DNA of 64,000 nucleotides from a virus (Duplodnaviria > Heunggongvirae > Uroviricota > Caudoviricetes), in the IMG/VR virus record IMGVR_UViG_2850796239_000011, positions 29,227 through 93,226 of that record; one strand, written 5' to 3'. Made by a program: the position numbers and the translations under genes. Numbering within the stretch: position 1 is the stretch's first letter; every line of letters begins with the position of its first letter. Under the pieces are notes generated by a model. That model did not search any database. It saw only the letters and a list, made by a program, of their open reading frames with translations, and had not been told where the DNA came from. This document shows, in pieces, positions 4,663 through 29,241 of this stretch.

Positions 4663-4876
4663 CTCCCAGGCGTTTAAACATTTTTCCGGACTGAAACGCC
4701 ACCAGCGGATAACTCAGGGTATGAGTACGTCCCTGAACCTGGCAGACAACCTTCTGGCTTTCTGTATTGACCAGGCAAACCCGCAGAACGTGGCCGTTGC
4801 TGGTGGTGAACCACTGCCCCACTCGGGGGCAACGGTTGTATCGGTGATACAGGGAATTAACGATGCGGCGAATCAT
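4643..4876 (-). CDS. Hypothetical small protein (77 aa)
   Basis: Start overlaps stop of upstream Rha gene (ATGA); overlaps O-like start by 20 bp. Confidence 0.4.
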   Translation of the reverse strand: MIRRIVNSLYHRYNRCPRVGQWFTTSNGHVLRVCLVNTESQKVVCQVQGRTHTLSYPLVAFQSGKMFKRLGGGYASV

Positions 4877-5436
4877 GGACGCACCTCCTTGTCAGAACCA
4901 TTCAGCCTGGAATCAACAAGTGCAGCACCAAAAACAGCATCACCTACACGGTCGTACAGTTTGCTGGCCAGCGGAGATTCAACAGCCTTAAGCATTGGGT
5001 AAAGCTGGCTTGTCCAGATTTGATGGATTTCACGCAAATGCAGGTATACGCCTCTGGCGTTTTGTGCGACAGATGACATGTCAGCCGCACCAGCTCCTGA
5101 TAAGCTCCTCTCCATCTGGTTAAAGGCATTGATGTATGCCTCTTTGAACCGGGCGGCACGTTTACCAGTGAAGCCCATAGCAAGGAAGGCGAAGCCGTCG
5201 CGGGTGATTTGGTAGCAGGGAAGTTTGCGAGTACCGCCGTTGGGCTGGCGTACCAAAATTGATGTCTCCGCAAAATTGCGGGCACAAAACTCTGGAGAAC
5301 AATCCAAAATGCGGATCTTTTTCAGAACATCGTCATGACGTTTAGAGAAGAAGTTGGCAACAGCCAGGGATGAAGTAACAGCCTGACCATCAACGATGGC
5401 AATTTCAGGTTGAGTGAGGGTTGGGATCGTAGCCAT
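4873..5436 (-). CDS. Phage regulatory protein, Rha family (187 aa)
   Basis: Rha-like N-terminal motif TSSLAVANFFSKRHDDVLKKI; only the 3' 187 codons of track ORF 4873..6735 are protein-like. Confidence 0.8.
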   Translation of the reverse strand: MATIPTLTQPEIAIVDGQAVTSSLAVANFFSKRHDDVLKKIRILDCSPEFCARNFAETSILVRQPNGGTRKLPCYQITRDGFAFLAMGFTGKRAARFKEAYINAFNQMERSLSGAGAADMSSVAQNARGVYLHLREIHQIWTSQLYPMLKAVESPLASKLYDRVGDAVFGAALVDSRLNGSDKEVRP

Positions 5437-5733
5437 GATGGCAGCCTCTTTGGTGATTTTTAATAACTCACCACCAAAGCTTCTCACGGCAATAGGTGGT
5501 GAGACGTACAGGGGTGAGAAACCGGTCACCAAAGAACCCGGCCCAACCGAAGTTGGCCCTGCACGCCCCACCATAATTTGGGCGTAATGCTGCTCATGAC
5601 ACAAAAAAACCGCAAGAGCGCGGTTGTGCGCTTTGGTGAATTCCGGGTTCTCACGCCCGGCACCCGCTTTATAAGGTGCGGAGACAGTGTAACGTCCCGA
5701 AATTGCAGAATCAATATCAAAATGTTGTAGCTG

Positions 5734-5772
5734 TGGACAACGCGAAGCCTTGTTGTTATTGTTTACAACAAG
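5734..5772 (+). promoter_or_regulatory. Putative promoter (-35 TGGACA, -10 TATTGT) overlapped by inverted repeat CTTGTTGT-N8-ACAACAAG
   Basis: Read from sequence; 17-bp spacer; palindrome 5749..5772 overlaps the -10; lies 20-60 bp upstream of 5791 start. Confidence 0.4.
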
Positions 5773-5790
5773 AACCAGAGGAAGCTTTAA

Positions 5791-6078
5791 ATGCCATCCA
5801 GACTGTATAAACAGTTCATCCGTCATCTCGGTGAATCTGAATACATACGAATCCGCATATGGGAAGTGGAGCCTGCTGTATTGGGTAGCCAGCACAACTA
5901 CAAATACAGCATGGCTTATGTCGTTGATGGCATGTGTGTGATGCGTTACGACAACGAACGGGGTAAAGGCGATCACAAACACATTGGTAGTCAGGAAGTC
6001 AGCACCAGCTTTGTCACCATTGAACAACTGCTCGCTGATTTTCTGGCTGACGTTGAATCCATCCGCAGAGGTATCTGA
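5791..6078 (+). CDS. TumE-like toxin candidate (DUF6516-like), 95 aa
   Basis: Motif YKYS...RYDNERGKGDHKH recalled as the DUF6516/TumE signature; good RBS GAGGAAG; stop followed by partner start one base later. Confidence 0.55.
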   Translation: MPSRLYKQFIRHLGESEYIRIRIWEVEPAVLGSQHNYKYSMAYVVDGMCVMRYDNERGKGDHKHIGSQEVSTSFVTIEQLLADFLADVESIRRGI

Positions 6079-6079
6079 C

Positions 6080-6439
6080 ATGAGAACCGTAACAATCCGA
6101 ATCGAGTCAATGGATAATTTCACGGCTGATGTGCTGTCTGCGTTCCAGGAAGCAGCTACCGGAGCAAAAGCAACCAGAGAAAACGTTATTTCATTTCCTG
6201 ACTGGCAAATGATGCATAAGGTACTGACACCAAAACGCATGGACATTCTGATGGCAATGACTGGTGCCGGAGAAATGTCCATCCGAAAAATTGCAGCCCT
6301 GGTTGGACGTGATGTAAAAAGCGTGCATACTGACGTGACCGCACTCATCAGCAACGGTTTACTGGAAAAAAGCGAGCGCGGAACGTCATTCCCGTATGAC
6401 GACATCCACTTTGATTTTACGCTGGGCAAGGCGGCGTAA
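6080..6439 (+). CDS. Winged-helix DNA-binding protein (HVO_A0114-like), putative antitoxin/regulator
   Basis: LTPKRxxIL...SIRKIAALVGRDVKSVHTDVxxL...PYDDI pattern recalled for partners of DUF6516 proteins. Confidence 0.55.
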   Translation: MRTVTIRIESMDNFTADVLSAFQEAATGAKATRENVISFPDWQMMHKVLTPKRMDILMAMTGAGEMSIRKIAALVGRDVKSVHTDVTALISNGLLEKSERGTSFPYDDIHFDFTLGKAA

Positions 6440-6460
6440 TTTTTCGTATATACCGTGCCG

Positions 6461-6637
6461 TCATTCCGGCGGCGCTTCACACTCCACAAAATCACGCCTG
6501 AACAACCACAACGGGCTGAAACATTCATATGGATAACCATCACGCAGATAAATAACCCGCTGTGTTTCAGGCTCCCAGCGTATAACGTGGACGCGGCGCC
6601 CTCTGCCATCACGGAACCAGCGATTGAGGACTTGCAT
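6461..6637 (-). CDS. Small phage protein, DUF4222-like (58 aa)
   Basis: Translated by hand: MQVLNRWFRDGRGRRVHVIRWEPETQRVIYLRDGYPYECFSPLWLFRRDF...; below the 60-aa ORF-track cutoff. Confidence 0.5.
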   Translation of the reverse strand: MQVLNRWFRDGRGRRVHVIRWEPETQRVIYLRDGYPYECFSPLWLFRRDFVECEAPPE

Positions 6638-6656
6638 AAATTACCCGTAAACATCG

Positions 6657-7370
6657 TCACACCTGCCAGCCAGTAGCCTGAAACAGGCCCATTCTCGGGT
6701 GATACCAGCGGGTACCACGCTGAACGGCACCACACATCATGTGATGAAACGCCTTCAGAAACGGTTCCACAGCAACAATTTCACGACGTGCCAGTAATCC
6801 ATCTGGCGTCAAAAATTCATGAGTGTCTGTCGGGATGTTGTATGCATTTACAAGCGTGCGACATTTCGCATCTGACATACCGGTTTTTGCTTTCAGCTGG
6901 CGATATCCGGCATAGCCCTCACGAATGGTACCCTTTTTGATTTGCTCAACTGTTTCGGCAACATGGCTGACTTTTTCTTCCACCTGAGTGATCCGTTTCT
7001 GCTGGCGAACGGCTTCAAGAGCCATCGCGGCAACCATTTCGATTTCGCTCATTGGCTTACGGATCTGTTCTTCCAGTTCGCGCCAGCGATCTACCAGGCG
7101 AGCAGTGAATTCAGGACAGAGCTGTGCGACGACAATGATACTGTCGCGCTTACCTTGTTCTCCTTCAAACAGGTAATGCTCATATTGAACTTTAAAACCT
7201 AAGTTATTGATTCTTTCGGAAACCTCAATTTGAGGAGACCGGACAACGCCACCTTTGGCTAATGTTTCAATAGTGCGTTTCACATTGTCATGACGCTTAC
7301 CCACCAGTTCTGCGATCTCAACGCTGGTCATGGATGCTTTGTCGTTAAAAATTGCGGTGTTCACTGCCAT
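6657..7370 (-). CDS. Phage antirepressor (Rha/KilAC-type), 237 aa
   Basis: N-terminal block matches paralogue 44350..45018; start reassigned to ATG at 7370 with RBS TAAGGAG. Confidence 0.8.
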   Translation of the reverse strand: MAVNTAIFNDKASMTSVEIAELVGKRHDNVKRTIETLAKGGVVRSPQIEVSERINNLGFKVQYEHYLFEGEQGKRDSIIVVAQLCPEFTARLVDRWRELEEQIRKPMSEIEMVAAMALEAVRQQKRITQVEEKVSHVAETVEQIKKGTIREGYAGYRQLKAKTGMSDAKCRTLVNAYNIPTDTHEFLTPDGLLARREIVAVEPFLKAFHHMMCGAVQRGTRWYHPRMGLFQATGWQV

Positions 7371-7504
7371 CTCCTTACGGATAAATTCTTTTAAGATTCC
7401 GCACATTCGTACTTGTTGGTGCCGAACCTTCCTTCAGTTATCCTTTTGATCCCTATAAACAAAAGAACCAAAGGAGGTTCGACATGAAAGTTCAGGCCGT
7501 TGGT

Positions 7505-7837
7505 TTATTCTGGTTTCGCGATGCTATTCAGTATCATGAGTTCAAAAAGATTTTTACTGATGCAGATGTGCTCTCCGACAGTTACACCTAGTGGAAACAC
7601 GACGCTGAAAAATTGATTAAGCGTGTCGAAAGAAGCGGGCAACGAGTTATTAAAGTTGAAGCGGATACAACCGAGTTCATCACCTGGTGTACAAGCGAAG
7701 GCATTGGACTCAATGCCAAAGGTAGAATGCAGTTCGCATCCTTTAAGGCTTACCAACAACTTCTCAGCGAACGCTAATGTGATTGGGGCAATCGAAATGG
7801 TTGCCCCATCGTATTTAATAGTTATTTTTTCGCTCAT
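7505..7837 (-). CDS. Hypothetical protein in cII position (110 aa)
   Basis: Directly downstream of cro-like gene in the same operon; no recognisable cII motif. Confidence 0.4.
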   Translation of the reverse strand: MSEKITIKYDGATISIAPITLAFAEKLLVSLKGCELHSTFGIESNAFACTPGDELGCIRFNFNNSLPASFDTLNQFFSVVFPLGVTVGEHICISKNLFELMILNSIAKPE

Positions 7838-8168: not shown

Positions 8169-8825
8169 ATGAAATCTTTAGGTGAACGCCTAATCAACGC
8201 ACGACAAAAAGCTGGGTTAACGCAAGATGCGTTGGCTAAAAAAGCAGGGGTCACCAGAGTTGCAATCAGTAAAGCCGAGCAAGGCCTTACAAAAAGTTTC
8301 AACGGTGACACCCTTTTTAAAGTCGCAGCTGCACTGCAGTGTTCACCGCAGTGGCTTCAGAACGGAGATGAGAAAGGTAAGCATTGGGAAAATAATGTTA
8401 AGAGTTGCCCCCAGAGGGACACAGCACACTCTTACCCTGTAATTAACTGGGTTCAGGCAGGATTATTCACAACTGCAGGTGATGACTACAACATGTATGA
8501 TCAGGATAACTGGAGGCATTCTGTAAAATACGCTGGTGAGAGGGGGTTCTGGCTGGAAGTGCACGGAGACTCAATGACTTCGCCTATAGGAATAACATTT
8601 CCTGAAGGAATGTCGATCCTTGTCAACCCAGATAAAGAAGTTTTTTCAGGGTGTTACGTCATTGCCAGAAAAAAATCCACCAATGAAGCAACATTCAAAA
8701 AATATATTTCTGAAATGGGAAAGGCGTTTCTAAAGCCCCTTAATCCACAATACCCAATCATAGAAATGGACAATGATTGCGAAATAGTAGGCGTTGTGGT
8801 TGATGCCAGATGGGATATTTTCTGA
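8169..8825 (+). CDS. CI-type repressor (HTH + LexA/S24 peptidase domain)
   Basis: N-terminal HTH, C-terminal HGDSM serine and KK lysine motif; RBS AAAGGAG. Confidence 0.85.
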   Translation: MKSLGERLINARQKAGLTQDALAKKAGVTRVAISKAEQGLTKSFNGDTLFKVAAALQCSPQWLQNGDEKGKHWENNVKSCPQRDTAHSYPVINWVQAGLFTTAGDDYNMYDQDNWRHSVKYAGERGFWLEVHGDSMTSPIGITFPEGMSILVNPDKEVFSGCYVIARKKSTNEATFKKYISEMGKAFLKPLNPQYPIIEMDNDCEIVGVVVDARWDIF

Positions 8826-10567: not shown

Positions 10568-11386
10568 TTAAGCAGCCATCTGATGATATTTTTCCCTGAA
10601 GGCTGCCGGGGAGATATTCCCCAGACGAGAGTGACGACGCTGACGATTGTAGAAAATCTCAATGTATTCCCGTATTACTGAGATGGCTTCATCCCGGTTA
10701 TTAAAACGATAGTGGCTCAGGCTCTCATTTTTCAGCGTTCCCCAGAAGCTTTCCATCGGAGCGTTGTCGTAACAGTTACCTTTACGCGACATTGATGTTT
10801 TCAGACCAGACTGCTCCTGTATGACCCGGTAATCGTATGCGCAGTACTGTGAACCTCGATCAGAGTGGTGGATTAGCCCGGCAGGTGGGCGCTGGCTCCT
10901 GAGCGCCATAAACAGGGCTTTACCTGTCAGCTCTTTTGTCATGCGCTCTCCCATGGCGTAGCCGACAATTTCGCACGTATAAACATCTTTGATGCCAGCG
11001 AGGTACAACCATCCCTCCTGTGTGGCAACATACGTCAGGTCCGCCACCCAGACCTGATTTGGTGCTGTAGGAGCGAACGTCTGGTTCAGCAGATTTGGCG
11101 CAACTGGCAGATTGTGGTTCGGGTTCGTAGTCGCTCTGAACTTGCGTTTCTGCTTACAGCGTAGCCTTAGCTCCTTACGAAGACGTGCCAGTCGGTCACG
11201 ACCAACGATGATGCCATTCTCTGCCAGCTCCGTCTGGAGCCGCCGGGTTCCATATGTTTCGCGAGTGCGGATATGTGCCACCTTAATCTCCAGTTTTAGC
11301 CGCTCATCACTTTGTTTTCTGTCTGAGGGTTCATGCTGTACCCAGTTGTAATAACCGCTCCTGGATACACCAAATACCTGACACAT
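10568..11386 (-). CDS. IS600 transposase OrfB (DDE domain)
   Basis: 272 aa, IS3-family catalytic core. Confidence 0.9.
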   Translation of the reverse strand: MCQVFGVSRSGYYNWVQHEPSDRKQSDERLKLEIKVAHIRTRETYGTRRLQTELAENGIIVGRDRLARLRKELRLRCKQKRKFRATTNPNHNLPVAPNLLNQTFAPTAPNQVWVADLTYVATQEGWLYLAGIKDVYTCEIVGYAMGERMTKELTGKALFMALRSQRPPAGLIHHSDRGSQYCAYDYRVIQEQSGLKTSMSRKGNCYDNAPMESFWGTLKNESLSHYRFNNRDEAISVIREYIEIFYNRQRRHSRLGNISPAAFREKYHQMAA

Positions 11387-11421
11387 CGCTTCAATGGGAA
11401 ATTGTTGTCGCCATTGTTCGA

Positions 11422-11724
11422 TTAACGCGTATTTTTCAGCGACTCCTGTGCAAAATACGCTGTTGCTTTTTTTAATATATCTCGCTCAAGGCGAGCTTCA
11501 TTTAACGCCTTACGCAGTTGCAGAATTTCAGATTCCAGTTCAGCCACCGTGCGGGAACCAGGAGTACCGAGCCCTTTTCTGGCGGCGGTAACCCATTGTC
11601 CTAAAGTGCCTTCAGGAAGGGATAATCGGGAAGCGCCTTCACTGATCGAAAGTTGATTTTCAAGAACCGTTCTGACAGCTTCGGCTTTGAACTCTTTAGA
11701 GTAACGTTGGGTTTTTCTGCTCAT
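11422..11724 (-). CDS. IS600 OrfA (HTH)
   Basis: 100 aa, MSRKTQRYSKEFKAEAV..., leucine zipper. Confidence 0.9.
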   Translation of the reverse strand: MSRKTQRYSKEFKAEAVRTVLENQLSISEGASRLSLPEGTLGQWVTAARKGLGTPGSRTVAELESEILQLRKALNEARLERDILKKATAYFAQESLKNTR

Positions 11725-13016: not shown

Positions 13017-13342
13017 ATGACTAAAAATACTCGTTTTTCCCCGAAGTCCGTCAGAGGGCGATTCGTATGGTTCTGGAAAGTCAGGGCGAATATGACTCAC
13101 AGTGGGCGGCAATTTGTTCCATTGCCCCAAAGATTGGCTGTACACCGGAGACTCTGCGTGTCCGGGTACGCCAGCATGAGCGGGATACCGGAGGCGGTGA
13201 TGGCGGGCTCACCACCGCTGAACGTCAGCGTCTGAAAGAGCTGGAACGTGAAAATCGTGAACTGCGCCGCAGTAACGATATCCTTCGCCAGGCTTCCGCT
13301 TATTTTGCGAAGGCGGAGTTCGACCGCCTCTGGAAAAAATAA
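13017..13342 (+). pseudogene. IS629 orfA with frameshift in a C4 run
   Basis: Translation leaves the OrfA frame after MTKNTRFSP at CCCC 13039..13042 and resumes at 13067. Confidence 0.6.
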
Positions 13343-14229
13343 TGCCACTGCTGGATAAGCTGCGTGAGCAGTACGGGGTCGGACCGCTATGCAGCGAACT
13401 GCATATTGCCCCGTCAACGTATTACCACTGTCAGCAACAGCGACATCATCCGGATAAACGCAGTGCCCGTGCGCAGCGCGATGAGTGGCTGAAGAAAGAG
13501 ATACAGCGCGTATACGATGAAAATCACAAGGTATACGGTGTGCGTAAAGTCTGGCGTCAGTTGTTACGGGAAGGTATCAGAGTGGCCAGATGCACTGTGG
13601 CACGTCTCATGGCGGTTATGGGACTTGCCGGTGTTCTCCGGGGTAAAAAGGTCCGTACGACCATCAGCCGGAAAGCCGTTGCCGCAGGCGACCGCGTAAA
13701 CCGTCAGTTCGTGGCAGAACGACCTGACCAGCTGTGGGTGGCTGATTTTACTTACGTCAGCACATGGCAGGGCTTCGTCTATGTGGCGTTCATCATTGAT
13801 GTGTTTGCCGGATACATCGTGGGGTGGCGGGTCTCATCGTCCATGGACACGACATTCGTGCTGGATGCACTGGAGCAGGCGTTATGGGCCCGTCGACCGT
13901 CCGGCACGGTCCATCACAGTGATAAAGGTTCTCAGTATGTATCGCTGGGCTACACACAGCGGCTTAAGGAAGCCGGATTACTGGCATCAACAGGAAGTAC
14001 AGGCGACTCGTATGACAACGCGATGGCGGAGAGCATCAATGGTCTTTACAAAGCGGAGGTAATACACCGTAAGAGCTGGAAAAACCGTGCAGAAGTGGAA
14101 CTGGCCACACTCACGTGGGTGGACTGGTATAACAATCGACGATTGCTGGAAAGGCTGGGCCATACTCCTCCGGCAGAAGCAGAAAAAGCTTATTATGCTT
14201 CCATCGGAAACGATGATCTGGCAGCCTGA
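13342..14229 (+). CDS. IS629 transposase OrfB
   Basis: 295 aa, DDE transposase. Confidence 0.9.
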   Translation: MPLLDKLREQYGVGPLCSELHIAPSTYYHCQQQRHHPDKRSARAQRDEWLKKEIQRVYDENHKVYGVRKVWRQLLREGIRVARCTVARLMAVMGLAGVLRGKKVRTTISRKAVAAGDRVNRQFVAERPDQLWVADFTYVSTWQGFVYVAFIIDVFAGYIVGWRVSSSMDTTFVLDALEQALWARRPSGTVHHSDKGSQYVSLGYTQRLKEAGLLASTGSTGDSYDNAMAESINGLYKAEVIHRKSWKNRAEVELATLTWVDWYNNRRLLERLGHTPPAEAEKAYYASIGNDDLAA

Positions 14230-28891: not shown

Positions 28892-29241
28892 ACAATAACC
28901 CTCGTCCAGTCAGGCCAGATTTCCGGTACCTCAATCACCAGCCACGTTTCATCGCCAATAACAAATTTATCGCCTCCCTGTTGCCGGGCACGGTTAAGCC
29001 CGCACCAGTTACCATCGGTATACAATGTGGCGAAAACTCCCTGCTGGTTAAGATTATCAAGATGACGTAAATCAGCCTGGGTGACAGCCTGCTTTTGCAC
29101 CCTGACGGAAACCGGATCTTCATACTCAGGTACGCGGGAATAATCTGCCTGCTGTGTACTCCCGCGGGAACGATAAACCAGCGCGTCTGTAAAGGGATTT
29201 ACCCGACGTACTGCGCCGGAAACAATACCGTGAAAGTTCAT
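28876..29241 (-). CDS. Hypothetical head-tail protein
   Basis: 121 aa. Confidence 0.45.
   Translation of the reverse strand: MNFHGIVSGAVRRVNPFTDALVYRSRGSTQQADYSRVPEYEDPVSVRVQKQAVTQADLRHLDNLNQQGVFATLYTDGNWCGLNRARQQGGDKFVIGDETWLVIEVPEIWPDWTRVIVCLQV

Follow-up and report, generated by a model that had tools for sequence, protein, structure and literature searches.

What are two genes doing on the plus strand of a prophage early region whose neighbours are read from the minus strand? The question is raised by a 64,000-nucleotide (nt) stretch of DNA from a virus of the class Caudoviricetes (IMG/VR record IMGVR_UViG_2850796239_000011, positions 29,227 to 93,226; hereafter the window), in which the pair, here called tumE and tumA, lies within a lambdoid prophage (Table 1). 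The pair is a genuine further member of the known, already annotated TumE-TumA family and an ordinary accessory element. As to its function, the most probable answer, with a probability of roughly 0.75, is that it forms an autoregulated type II toxin-antitoxin (TA) cassette, transcribed independently as a 'moron' of the prophage.

An earlier reading of the locus, made from the sequence alone (the sequence-only reading), had staked its case on membership of the first gene in DUF6516, citing a YKYS...RYDNERGKGDHKH motif. The motif is present in the translation, and the protein scores 56.9 bits (E=2.1e-15; cut-off 23.4) with Pfam PF20126 (TumE, formerly DUF6516), over profile positions 6-81 of 81. 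The suspected partner, a winged helix-turn-helix (wHTH) protein of the HVO_A0114 type, is likewise recovered by a full-length match to profile PF25212 (HVO_A0114; E=6.5e-25, 87.2 bits, cut-off 27.6); this wHTH is also weakly similar to the C-terminal wHTH of Csa3/CasR regulators. In PHROGs the tumE and tumA products fall in phrog_16135 and phrog_11214, both families of unknown function, and a model for TumE was not found in NCBIfam. As had been noticed, a single base (C, 6079) separates the stop codon of tumE from the start codon of tumA, and translational coupling of the two is plausible because an AGAGG sequence inside the 3' end of tumE can serve as the ribosome-binding site of tumA.

The cassette DNA is 100% identical in Escherichia coli FDAARGOS_944, where RefSeq/PGAP names the identical tumE product 'toxin-antitoxin system TumE family protein' (WP_001141116.1); the identical tumA product of other strains is listed as 'HVO_A0114 family putative DNA-binding protein' (WP_001300492.1). 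Current annotation thus already covers the element. Older NCBI records often call the 119-residue HVO_A0114 wHTH protein 'glycosyl transferase family 1', evidently a misannotation that has been propagated. In strains CFSAN029787, RMDEC364 and VL46, tumE is unannotated in RefSeq; inactivation of the gene there can be rejected, for the aligned open reading frame (ORF) is intact and differs by H12N and one synonymous change, so that the missing annotation represents an annotation gap.

The window pair belongs to a subfamily with a short TumE and a downstream wHTH gene. Among 5.8 billion proteins searched, 114 clusters of close homologues came up, all with PF20126 and mostly 93-95 amino acids (aa) long, hosted by Escherichia, Salmonella, Shigella, Serratia, Pantoea, Yersinia and more distant bacteria. 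A profile search of 1.84 billion representatives extended this to 1,967 proteins at E<=1e-3 (1,002 at E<=1e-10), mostly of 90-105 aa; the short-form TumE is therefore a large group. Pairing was surveyed at 80 loci from species-representative genomes, in which at least 587 matching stretches exist, and at 72 loci on IMG/VR viral contigs. A tumA homologue lies directly downstream of tumE, on the same strand, at 150 of these 152 loci, both exceptions being contig ends, which makes the toxin-first, wHTH-second order a fixed feature of the subfamily. Within TumE itself, an alignment of 36 diverse homologues leaves G60, D61, H62, H64, L80 and F84 invariant and H35, K38, Y39, G47, D54, N55, E56, G58, K59, E69 and F74 conserved in at least 90% of the sequences; the window protein carries every one of them. 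By homology, the conserved cluster H35 / K38-Y39 / D54-N55-E56 / G60-D61-H62-x-H64 would form an active site. The AlphaFold model of TumE (predicted local distance difference test, pLDDT, 94.7) consists of six beta-strands and one C-terminal helix, and no similar structure was found in BFVD. The TumA model (pLDDT 82) has an N-terminal beta-alpha-beta element followed by the wHTH, that is, a helix-turn-helix (HTH) plus wing; its top Foldseek matches are wHTH proteins of the ArsR/MarR/CadC type (probability ~1.0, E ~2e-3).

The argument for autoregulation is carried by the region upstream of tumE. Here the sequence-only reading had pointed to a sigma70-like promoter overlapped by an 8-bp inverted repeat, and both are found, the promoter as TGGACA-17-TATTGT. 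Taken by itself such a match is no more than chance would give (2 sites in 1.2 kb versus 1.3 expected from shuffled sequences), and the promoter is credible because of its conservation across relatives, not because of its match score: an equivalent pair of TTGACA and -10 elements occurs in 70 of 124 non-redundant relatives. The repeat turns out to be one of two conserved operators. It corresponds to O2, a perfect palindrome whose 8-nt arms, CTTGTTGT and ACAACAAG, enclose the -10 element and the likely transcription start and whose core, TGTTG-N10-CAACA, occupies 5751-5770; the imperfect palindrome O1 encloses the -35 element. The two are spaced 28 nt start to start, in register, and the modal spacing in the family is 28-29 bp. 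Given these positions, binding of TumA to O1 and O2 would repress its own promoter.

Paired operators of this kind are widespread in the family. Of 125 non-redundant upstream regions, 41 contain a pair of perfect palindromes that share a half-site and lie 18-40 nt from each other; random segments of the same loci, taken as controls, gave a mean of 0.9 and a maximum of 3. With up to one mismatch allowed per palindrome the figure becomes 71 of 124, against 1-8 in controls, and the layout is seen in very distant relatives too. The right arm of O2 abuts the ATG in 51 of these 71 cases, which suggests leaderless mRNAs in those relatives; the window instead has a 21-nt leader with a Shine-Dalgarno sequence.

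The half-sites, moreover, co-vary with a single position of the protein, residue 79 in the numbering of the window TumA, located in the recognition helix within the motif R-D-V-K. Where this residue is V or I, 71 of 88 loci have the perfect palindrome TGTTG...CAACA; with F or M it is TGATG...CATCA (13 of 15 loci), and with Y, TATGG...CCATA (8 of 16). Not one locus in the three groups has a palindrome of another class, a clean three-way partition to be read with the shared ancestry of the loci in mind, by which the counts overstate the number of independent events and nominal P-values overstate the case. There is thus strong evidence, of a comparative kind, that TumA dimers are the predicted readers of O1/O2-type sites, and the idea of antitoxin autoregulation comes out strengthened: it is strongly inferred that TumA would repress its own promoter by binding O1 and O2 as a dimer. 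As predictions, both the operator TGTTG-N10-CAACA, present in two copies, and the specificity residue are new for the HVO_A0114 family, for which a published function was not found in the searchable literature.

A comparable arrangement is that of higBA, a toxin-first, translationally coupled type II TA operon whose HTH antitoxin binds palindromes over the promoter, and whose toxin HigB is a RelE-type ribosome-dependent ribonuclease (RNase). The window pair has the same toxin-first coupled layout and a putative HTH repressor, but shares neither the toxin fold nor the antitoxin family with higBA.

The founding description of the TumE-TumA system is that of Durairaj et al. 2023 (Nature 622:646, PMC10584680), who divided the DUF6516 proteins into seven subclusters with diverse partners. 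Six pairs of subcluster 1a, whose hosts are sulfur- and methane-oxidising Gammaproteobacteria, were toxic in E. coli and neutralised by their partners; the TumE of Allochromatium tepidum, the one toxin subjected to metabolic labelling, reduced 35S-Met incorporation, and an RNase activity was proposed and is unproven (PMC10584680). The sequence-only reading had called the family poorly characterised, and indeed the searchable literature on TumE, DUF6516 and HVO_A0114 holds, beyond this discovery paper, only incidental mentions. The window pair shares with the validated systems the Pfam family, the bicistronic arrangement and a partner predicted to bind DNA, the link being one of Pfam membership and not of direct alignment; the validated toxins are themselves labelled 'DUF6516 family protein'. 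As estimated from the lengths of synthetic fragments, those toxins measure ~115-135 aa and their antitoxins 70-110 aa. Unlike them, the window pair has a 119-aa HVO_A0114 winged-helix protein as partner and is phage-borne.

If the pair is a TA cassette, free TumE would arrest growth by blocking translation, as homology with toxins of a different subcluster suggests, and TumA would, again by homology, neutralise it through direct binding. To judge from the genomic context, the pair would be expressed in the lysogen while the phage early genes are silent, and would then stabilise the prophage (addiction), or abort or exclude infecting phages.

Several points weigh against this interpretation, besides the chance-level promoter score and the shared ancestry of the operator loci mentioned above. 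All experimental validation comes from six pairs of subcluster 1a, a group other than the short-TumE, downstream-wHTH subfamily. The validated toxins are 20-40 residues longer and have their antitoxin upstream, the order that prevails in most clusters (PMC10584680), whereas in the window a 95-aa toxin comes first. The published TumE fold has two helices on a seven-stranded antiparallel sheet (PMC10584680), one strand and one helix more than the window model, and no solved structure or fold relative was found from which the chemistry of TumE could be deduced. PADLOC gave no meaningful match for the protein. Lastly, the hairpin at the end of tumA is not individually significant and is weakly supported as a terminator.

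The interest of the window copy lies in its setting. It occurs in a prophage of E. coli/Shigella type and in a genetically tractable host, and represents a large subfamily (~2,000 representative clusters); the comparative data supply a testable operator model and a predicted specificity-switching residue; and the cassette shows a reproducible association with a phage antirepressor switch. Should toxicity and a phage phenotype prove true, this would be the first biological role for any TumE system.

The limits of the cassette can be drawn from two independent comparisons with other phages. Similarity to the related, cassette-free phage Stx2_EH2201 breaks off at 5717 and begins again at 6657; phiSTEC1589-Stx1c matches (77% identity) over 5722-6480 only. 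The mobile unit therefore spans approximately 5718-6480, and these alignments show the unit, ~760 bp long, to move between phage genomes. In Salmonella, too, this cassette runs antisense to the genes around it, both in the early region of P22-like prophages, where it again adjoins a DUF4222 gene, and in P4-like integrative islands. More broadly, both neighbours are antisense at 26 of 69 viral and 14 of 78 genomic loci, a modest excess on the viral side that comes from crude ORF-based calls and is not relied on here.

With regard to its immediate surroundings, the sequence-only reading had placed the pair between minus-strand Rha-family genes. Phage_pRha domains are found in both flanks, with the addition of a DUF4222 gene that also stands between tumA and the upstream Rha gene. 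Further minus-strand neighbours are O-, DnaC- and DnaB-like replication genes. Outside this set of minus-strand genes, a cI-like repressor of the LexA family is encoded on the plus strand (8169-8825).

Table 1. Features of the tumE-tumA locus and its neighbourhood (window coordinates)
Feature	Positions	Strand	Details
tumE	5791-6078	+	95 aa, ATG 5791, TGA 6076-6078; short-form TumE/DUF6516 putative toxin
tumA	6080-6439	+	119 aa, ATG 6080, TAA 6437-6439; HVO_A0114-type winged-helix putative antitoxin/repressor
tumE Shine-Dalgarno	5777-5784	+	AGAGGAAG, 6 nt ahead of ATG 5791; read from sequence
tumA Shine-Dalgarno	6067-6071	+	AGAGG, within tumE 3' end
tumE sigma-70-like promoter	5734-5762	+	-35 TGGACA 5734-5739, 17 nt, TG-extended -10 TATTGT 5757-5762; 9/12 matches
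Operator O1	5723-5742		Imperfect palindrome TGTTG-N10-CAACG, encloses -35
Operator O2	5749-5772		Perfect palindrome CTTGTTGT (5749-5756)-N8-ACAACAAG (5765-5772); encloses -10 and likely transcription start
Terminator-like hairpin and T-run	6417-6449	+	Overlaps tumA stop; dG -10.6 kcal/mol, z-score only -1.3
Portable tumE-tumA cassette	5718-6480	+	Promoter/operators, two genes, ~40 bp 3' tail with hairpin and T-run
Putative isrK promoter	5686-5714	-	-35 TTGATT 5714-5709, 17 nt, -10 TACACT 5691-5686; read from sequence
isrK Hfq-binding RNA and terminator	5603-5679	-	Rfam RF01394, 63.6 bits (gathering score 50), E=2.2e-12
C4-type antisense RNA	5492-5578	-	Rfam RF01695, 83.4 bits (gathering score 45), E=5.3e-16
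Rha-domain antirepressor (AnrP-like)	4873-5436	-	Phage_pRha 94.6 bits; phrog_821; ATG 5436 after AAGAGG
DUF4222 gene	6461-6637	-	Pfam PF13973, 55.8 bits; convergent with tumA
Upstream Rha/Ant-like early-region gene	6657-7406	-	Phage_pRha 40.4 bits; phrog_63 anti-repressor Ant; RefSeq start at 7364

The role of such a cassette might lie mainly in defence. It is possible, though tentative, that the pair serves mainly as an abortive-infection or superinfection-exclusion module, an option that concerns the role and is compatible with a TA mechanism: infection or host shut-off would deplete TumA, and the released TumE would halt translation before the invader finishes its cycle. The cassette resides in prophages and satellite-like islands of several genera, has its own promoter pointing against the phage genes, and is rare and patchy as is typical of accessory defence cargo: of 5426 complete E. 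coli genomes 18 carry it, with >99% identity in nine and ~78% in the other nine, and among 50,697 phage records it was found in 1, that of the Stx1c phage phiSTEC1589. Half of its relatives, however, stand in ordinary chromosomal contexts, as far as a crude strand analysis can tell, and a defence precedent for TumE is absent, for PADLOC holds no matching model and the searchable literature no report of TumE defence.

A second possibility arises from what lies on the other side of the promoter region. Immediately beyond O1, on the minus strand, the window encodes the Hfq-binding RNA isrK, a C4-type antisense RNA, which overlaps an orf45-like ORF of 46 codons starting at ATG 5574, and an antirepressor with a Rha domain; a c4-a1b1 target element stays below the Rfam threshold (24.1 versus 46.7). 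This neighbour, in which matches to isrK and C4 are followed by the 46-codon ORF and a Rha-type antirepressor, has the organisation of the Gifsy-1 locus isrK-orf45-anrP, whose transcription starts at a dedicated promoter, PisrK (Hershko-Shalev et al. 2016, PMC4825925); a TA cassette upstream of PisrK is not described there, the likeness concerning the neighbour and not tumE-tumA. The upstream sequence of the window isrK contains a putative promoter whose AATCAA element is conserved in other lineages. Since isrK/C4 thus likely has its own promoter, the cassette sits at a module boundary and not inside a single operon. The claim that the pair had been inserted antisense into the early operon is supported by the two phage comparisons, with the refinement that the site is such a boundary and not the interior of one uninterrupted operon. 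The isrK/C4-antirepressor neighbour also resembles the c4-icd-ant module of P1/P7 immI.

The putative isrK and tumE promoters are arranged back-to-back, with their -35 elements ~20 bp apart and O1 between and over them; O1 lies 9 bp from the putative isrK -35, that is, at -44 to -63 of the isrK promoter. At 24 of 159 loci, corresponding to about nine cassette lineages, C4 and/or isrK lie on the strand opposite to tumE and no more than 700 nt upstream of it; in about seven lineages, with TumE divergence of up to ~45%, the 5' end of isrK is 100-115 nt from the tumE ATG. This recurrent juxtaposition suggests either co-inheritance or functional coupling. On some related viral contigs, two to four tandem isrK/C4 units adjoin the cassette (L096, 3145-5902; L106, 5338-5812; L108, 4819-5850).

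Were the two modules coupled, TumA or the TumE-TumA complex would, when bound to O1, act on the isrK-C4-antirepressor promoter as well and feed the TA state (antitoxin level, stress, infection) into the antirepressor switch and hence into prophage induction. Such control from O1 is improbable on present evidence; it would explain why many diverged lineages have the cassette 100-115 nt away from isrK. A more radical version dispenses with the toxin altogether: TumA would control the isrK-C4-antirepressor module and its own promoter, TumE, without being toxic, would modulate TumA as a co-factor or sensor, and the cassette would tune prophage induction or immunity. The closeness of O1 to the isrK -35, the recurrent spacing just described and the fact that the TumE proteins shown to be toxic are of the longer form speak for it. 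It is nevertheless doubtful and less likely than a TA cassette, for the 135 of 159 loci near which isrK/C4 is absent, including all the non-enterobacterial and several enterobacterial ones, retain the same genes and operators; the cassette thus does not depend on the linkage. In addition, the catalytic-looking motif of TumE is invariant throughout the subfamily, as expected of an enzyme or toxin, and autoregulation alone accounts for operators lying over the cassette's own -35 and -10.

A peculiar feature of the locus is that the strand opposite to the pair is open. The minus strand is free of stop codons for 636 codons (6780-4873), in frame into the antirepressor gene, across DUF4222 (out of frame), antisense tumA, antisense tumE, isrK and C4. 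Of 16 enterobacterial cassette clusters, 8 have an antisense frame that is open throughout, compared with 3.5% of control coding segments of 648 nt, and such frames run for 410-724 codons in several lineages (L010, L096, L098, L106, L109, L158 and L161); the frame is open in all seven isrK-adjacent lineages. RefSeq makes partial use of it: the gene downstream is entered there as a 'Rha family' protein of 317 aa ('ash family protein' in another strain) that starts at ATG 5826, inside tumE; the Pfam Phage_ASH match of its N-terminal part coincides with the isrK and C4 RNA genes. A reading in which the plus-strand ORFs arose by chance or were mis-called, and in which the real gene is a minus-strand ORF of 620 aa (4873-6735) with the 317-aa 'Rha/Ash' annotation as a part, is one that the open strand and the PGAP start at 5826 might invite, but it must be rejected as next to impossible: tumE and tumA have strong family matches and hundreds of homologues, whereas the antisense product gave no match in a Pfam search, its 'Ash' portion overlies RNA genes, and the Rha domain begins only after ATG 5436, which has a good Shine-Dalgarno sequence. 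The open frame itself may be due to shared ancestry, to the early transcript's avoidance of polarity, or to another cause; a stop-free antisense strand might have been selected so that early transcripts stay translated and escape Rho-dependent polarity.

The cassette is not the only plus-strand element in this minus-strand early region. A further plus-strand ORF lies at 7485-7777 and corresponds to a 97-aa hypothetical protein in FDAARGOS_944 (L001, 10835-11128); the window copy appears to be interrupted by an in-frame TAG at ~7588-7590, as read by eye, and may be a pseudogene. FDAARGOS_944 is the closest complete genome, with 99.3% identity over 82% of the first 16 kb; its dnaB holds an IS600 where the window has an intact gene for a 463-aa helicase. 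Insertion sequences of the IS3 family are found at 10568-11724 and 13067-14229, in the prophage arm adjoining the immunity region, and also in FDAARGOS_944 (L001, 4653-5809). The window therefore derives from a related strain, IS-rich and Shigella-like, outside the E. coli genome set. Finally, TA-like cargo seems to accumulate around the prophage immunity region: a HigB_toxin and HTH pair is encoded in that of a Salmonella prophage (L160, 8744-9471), and a 'ParE family toxin-like protein' in that of FDAARGOS_944 (L001, 14002-14220).

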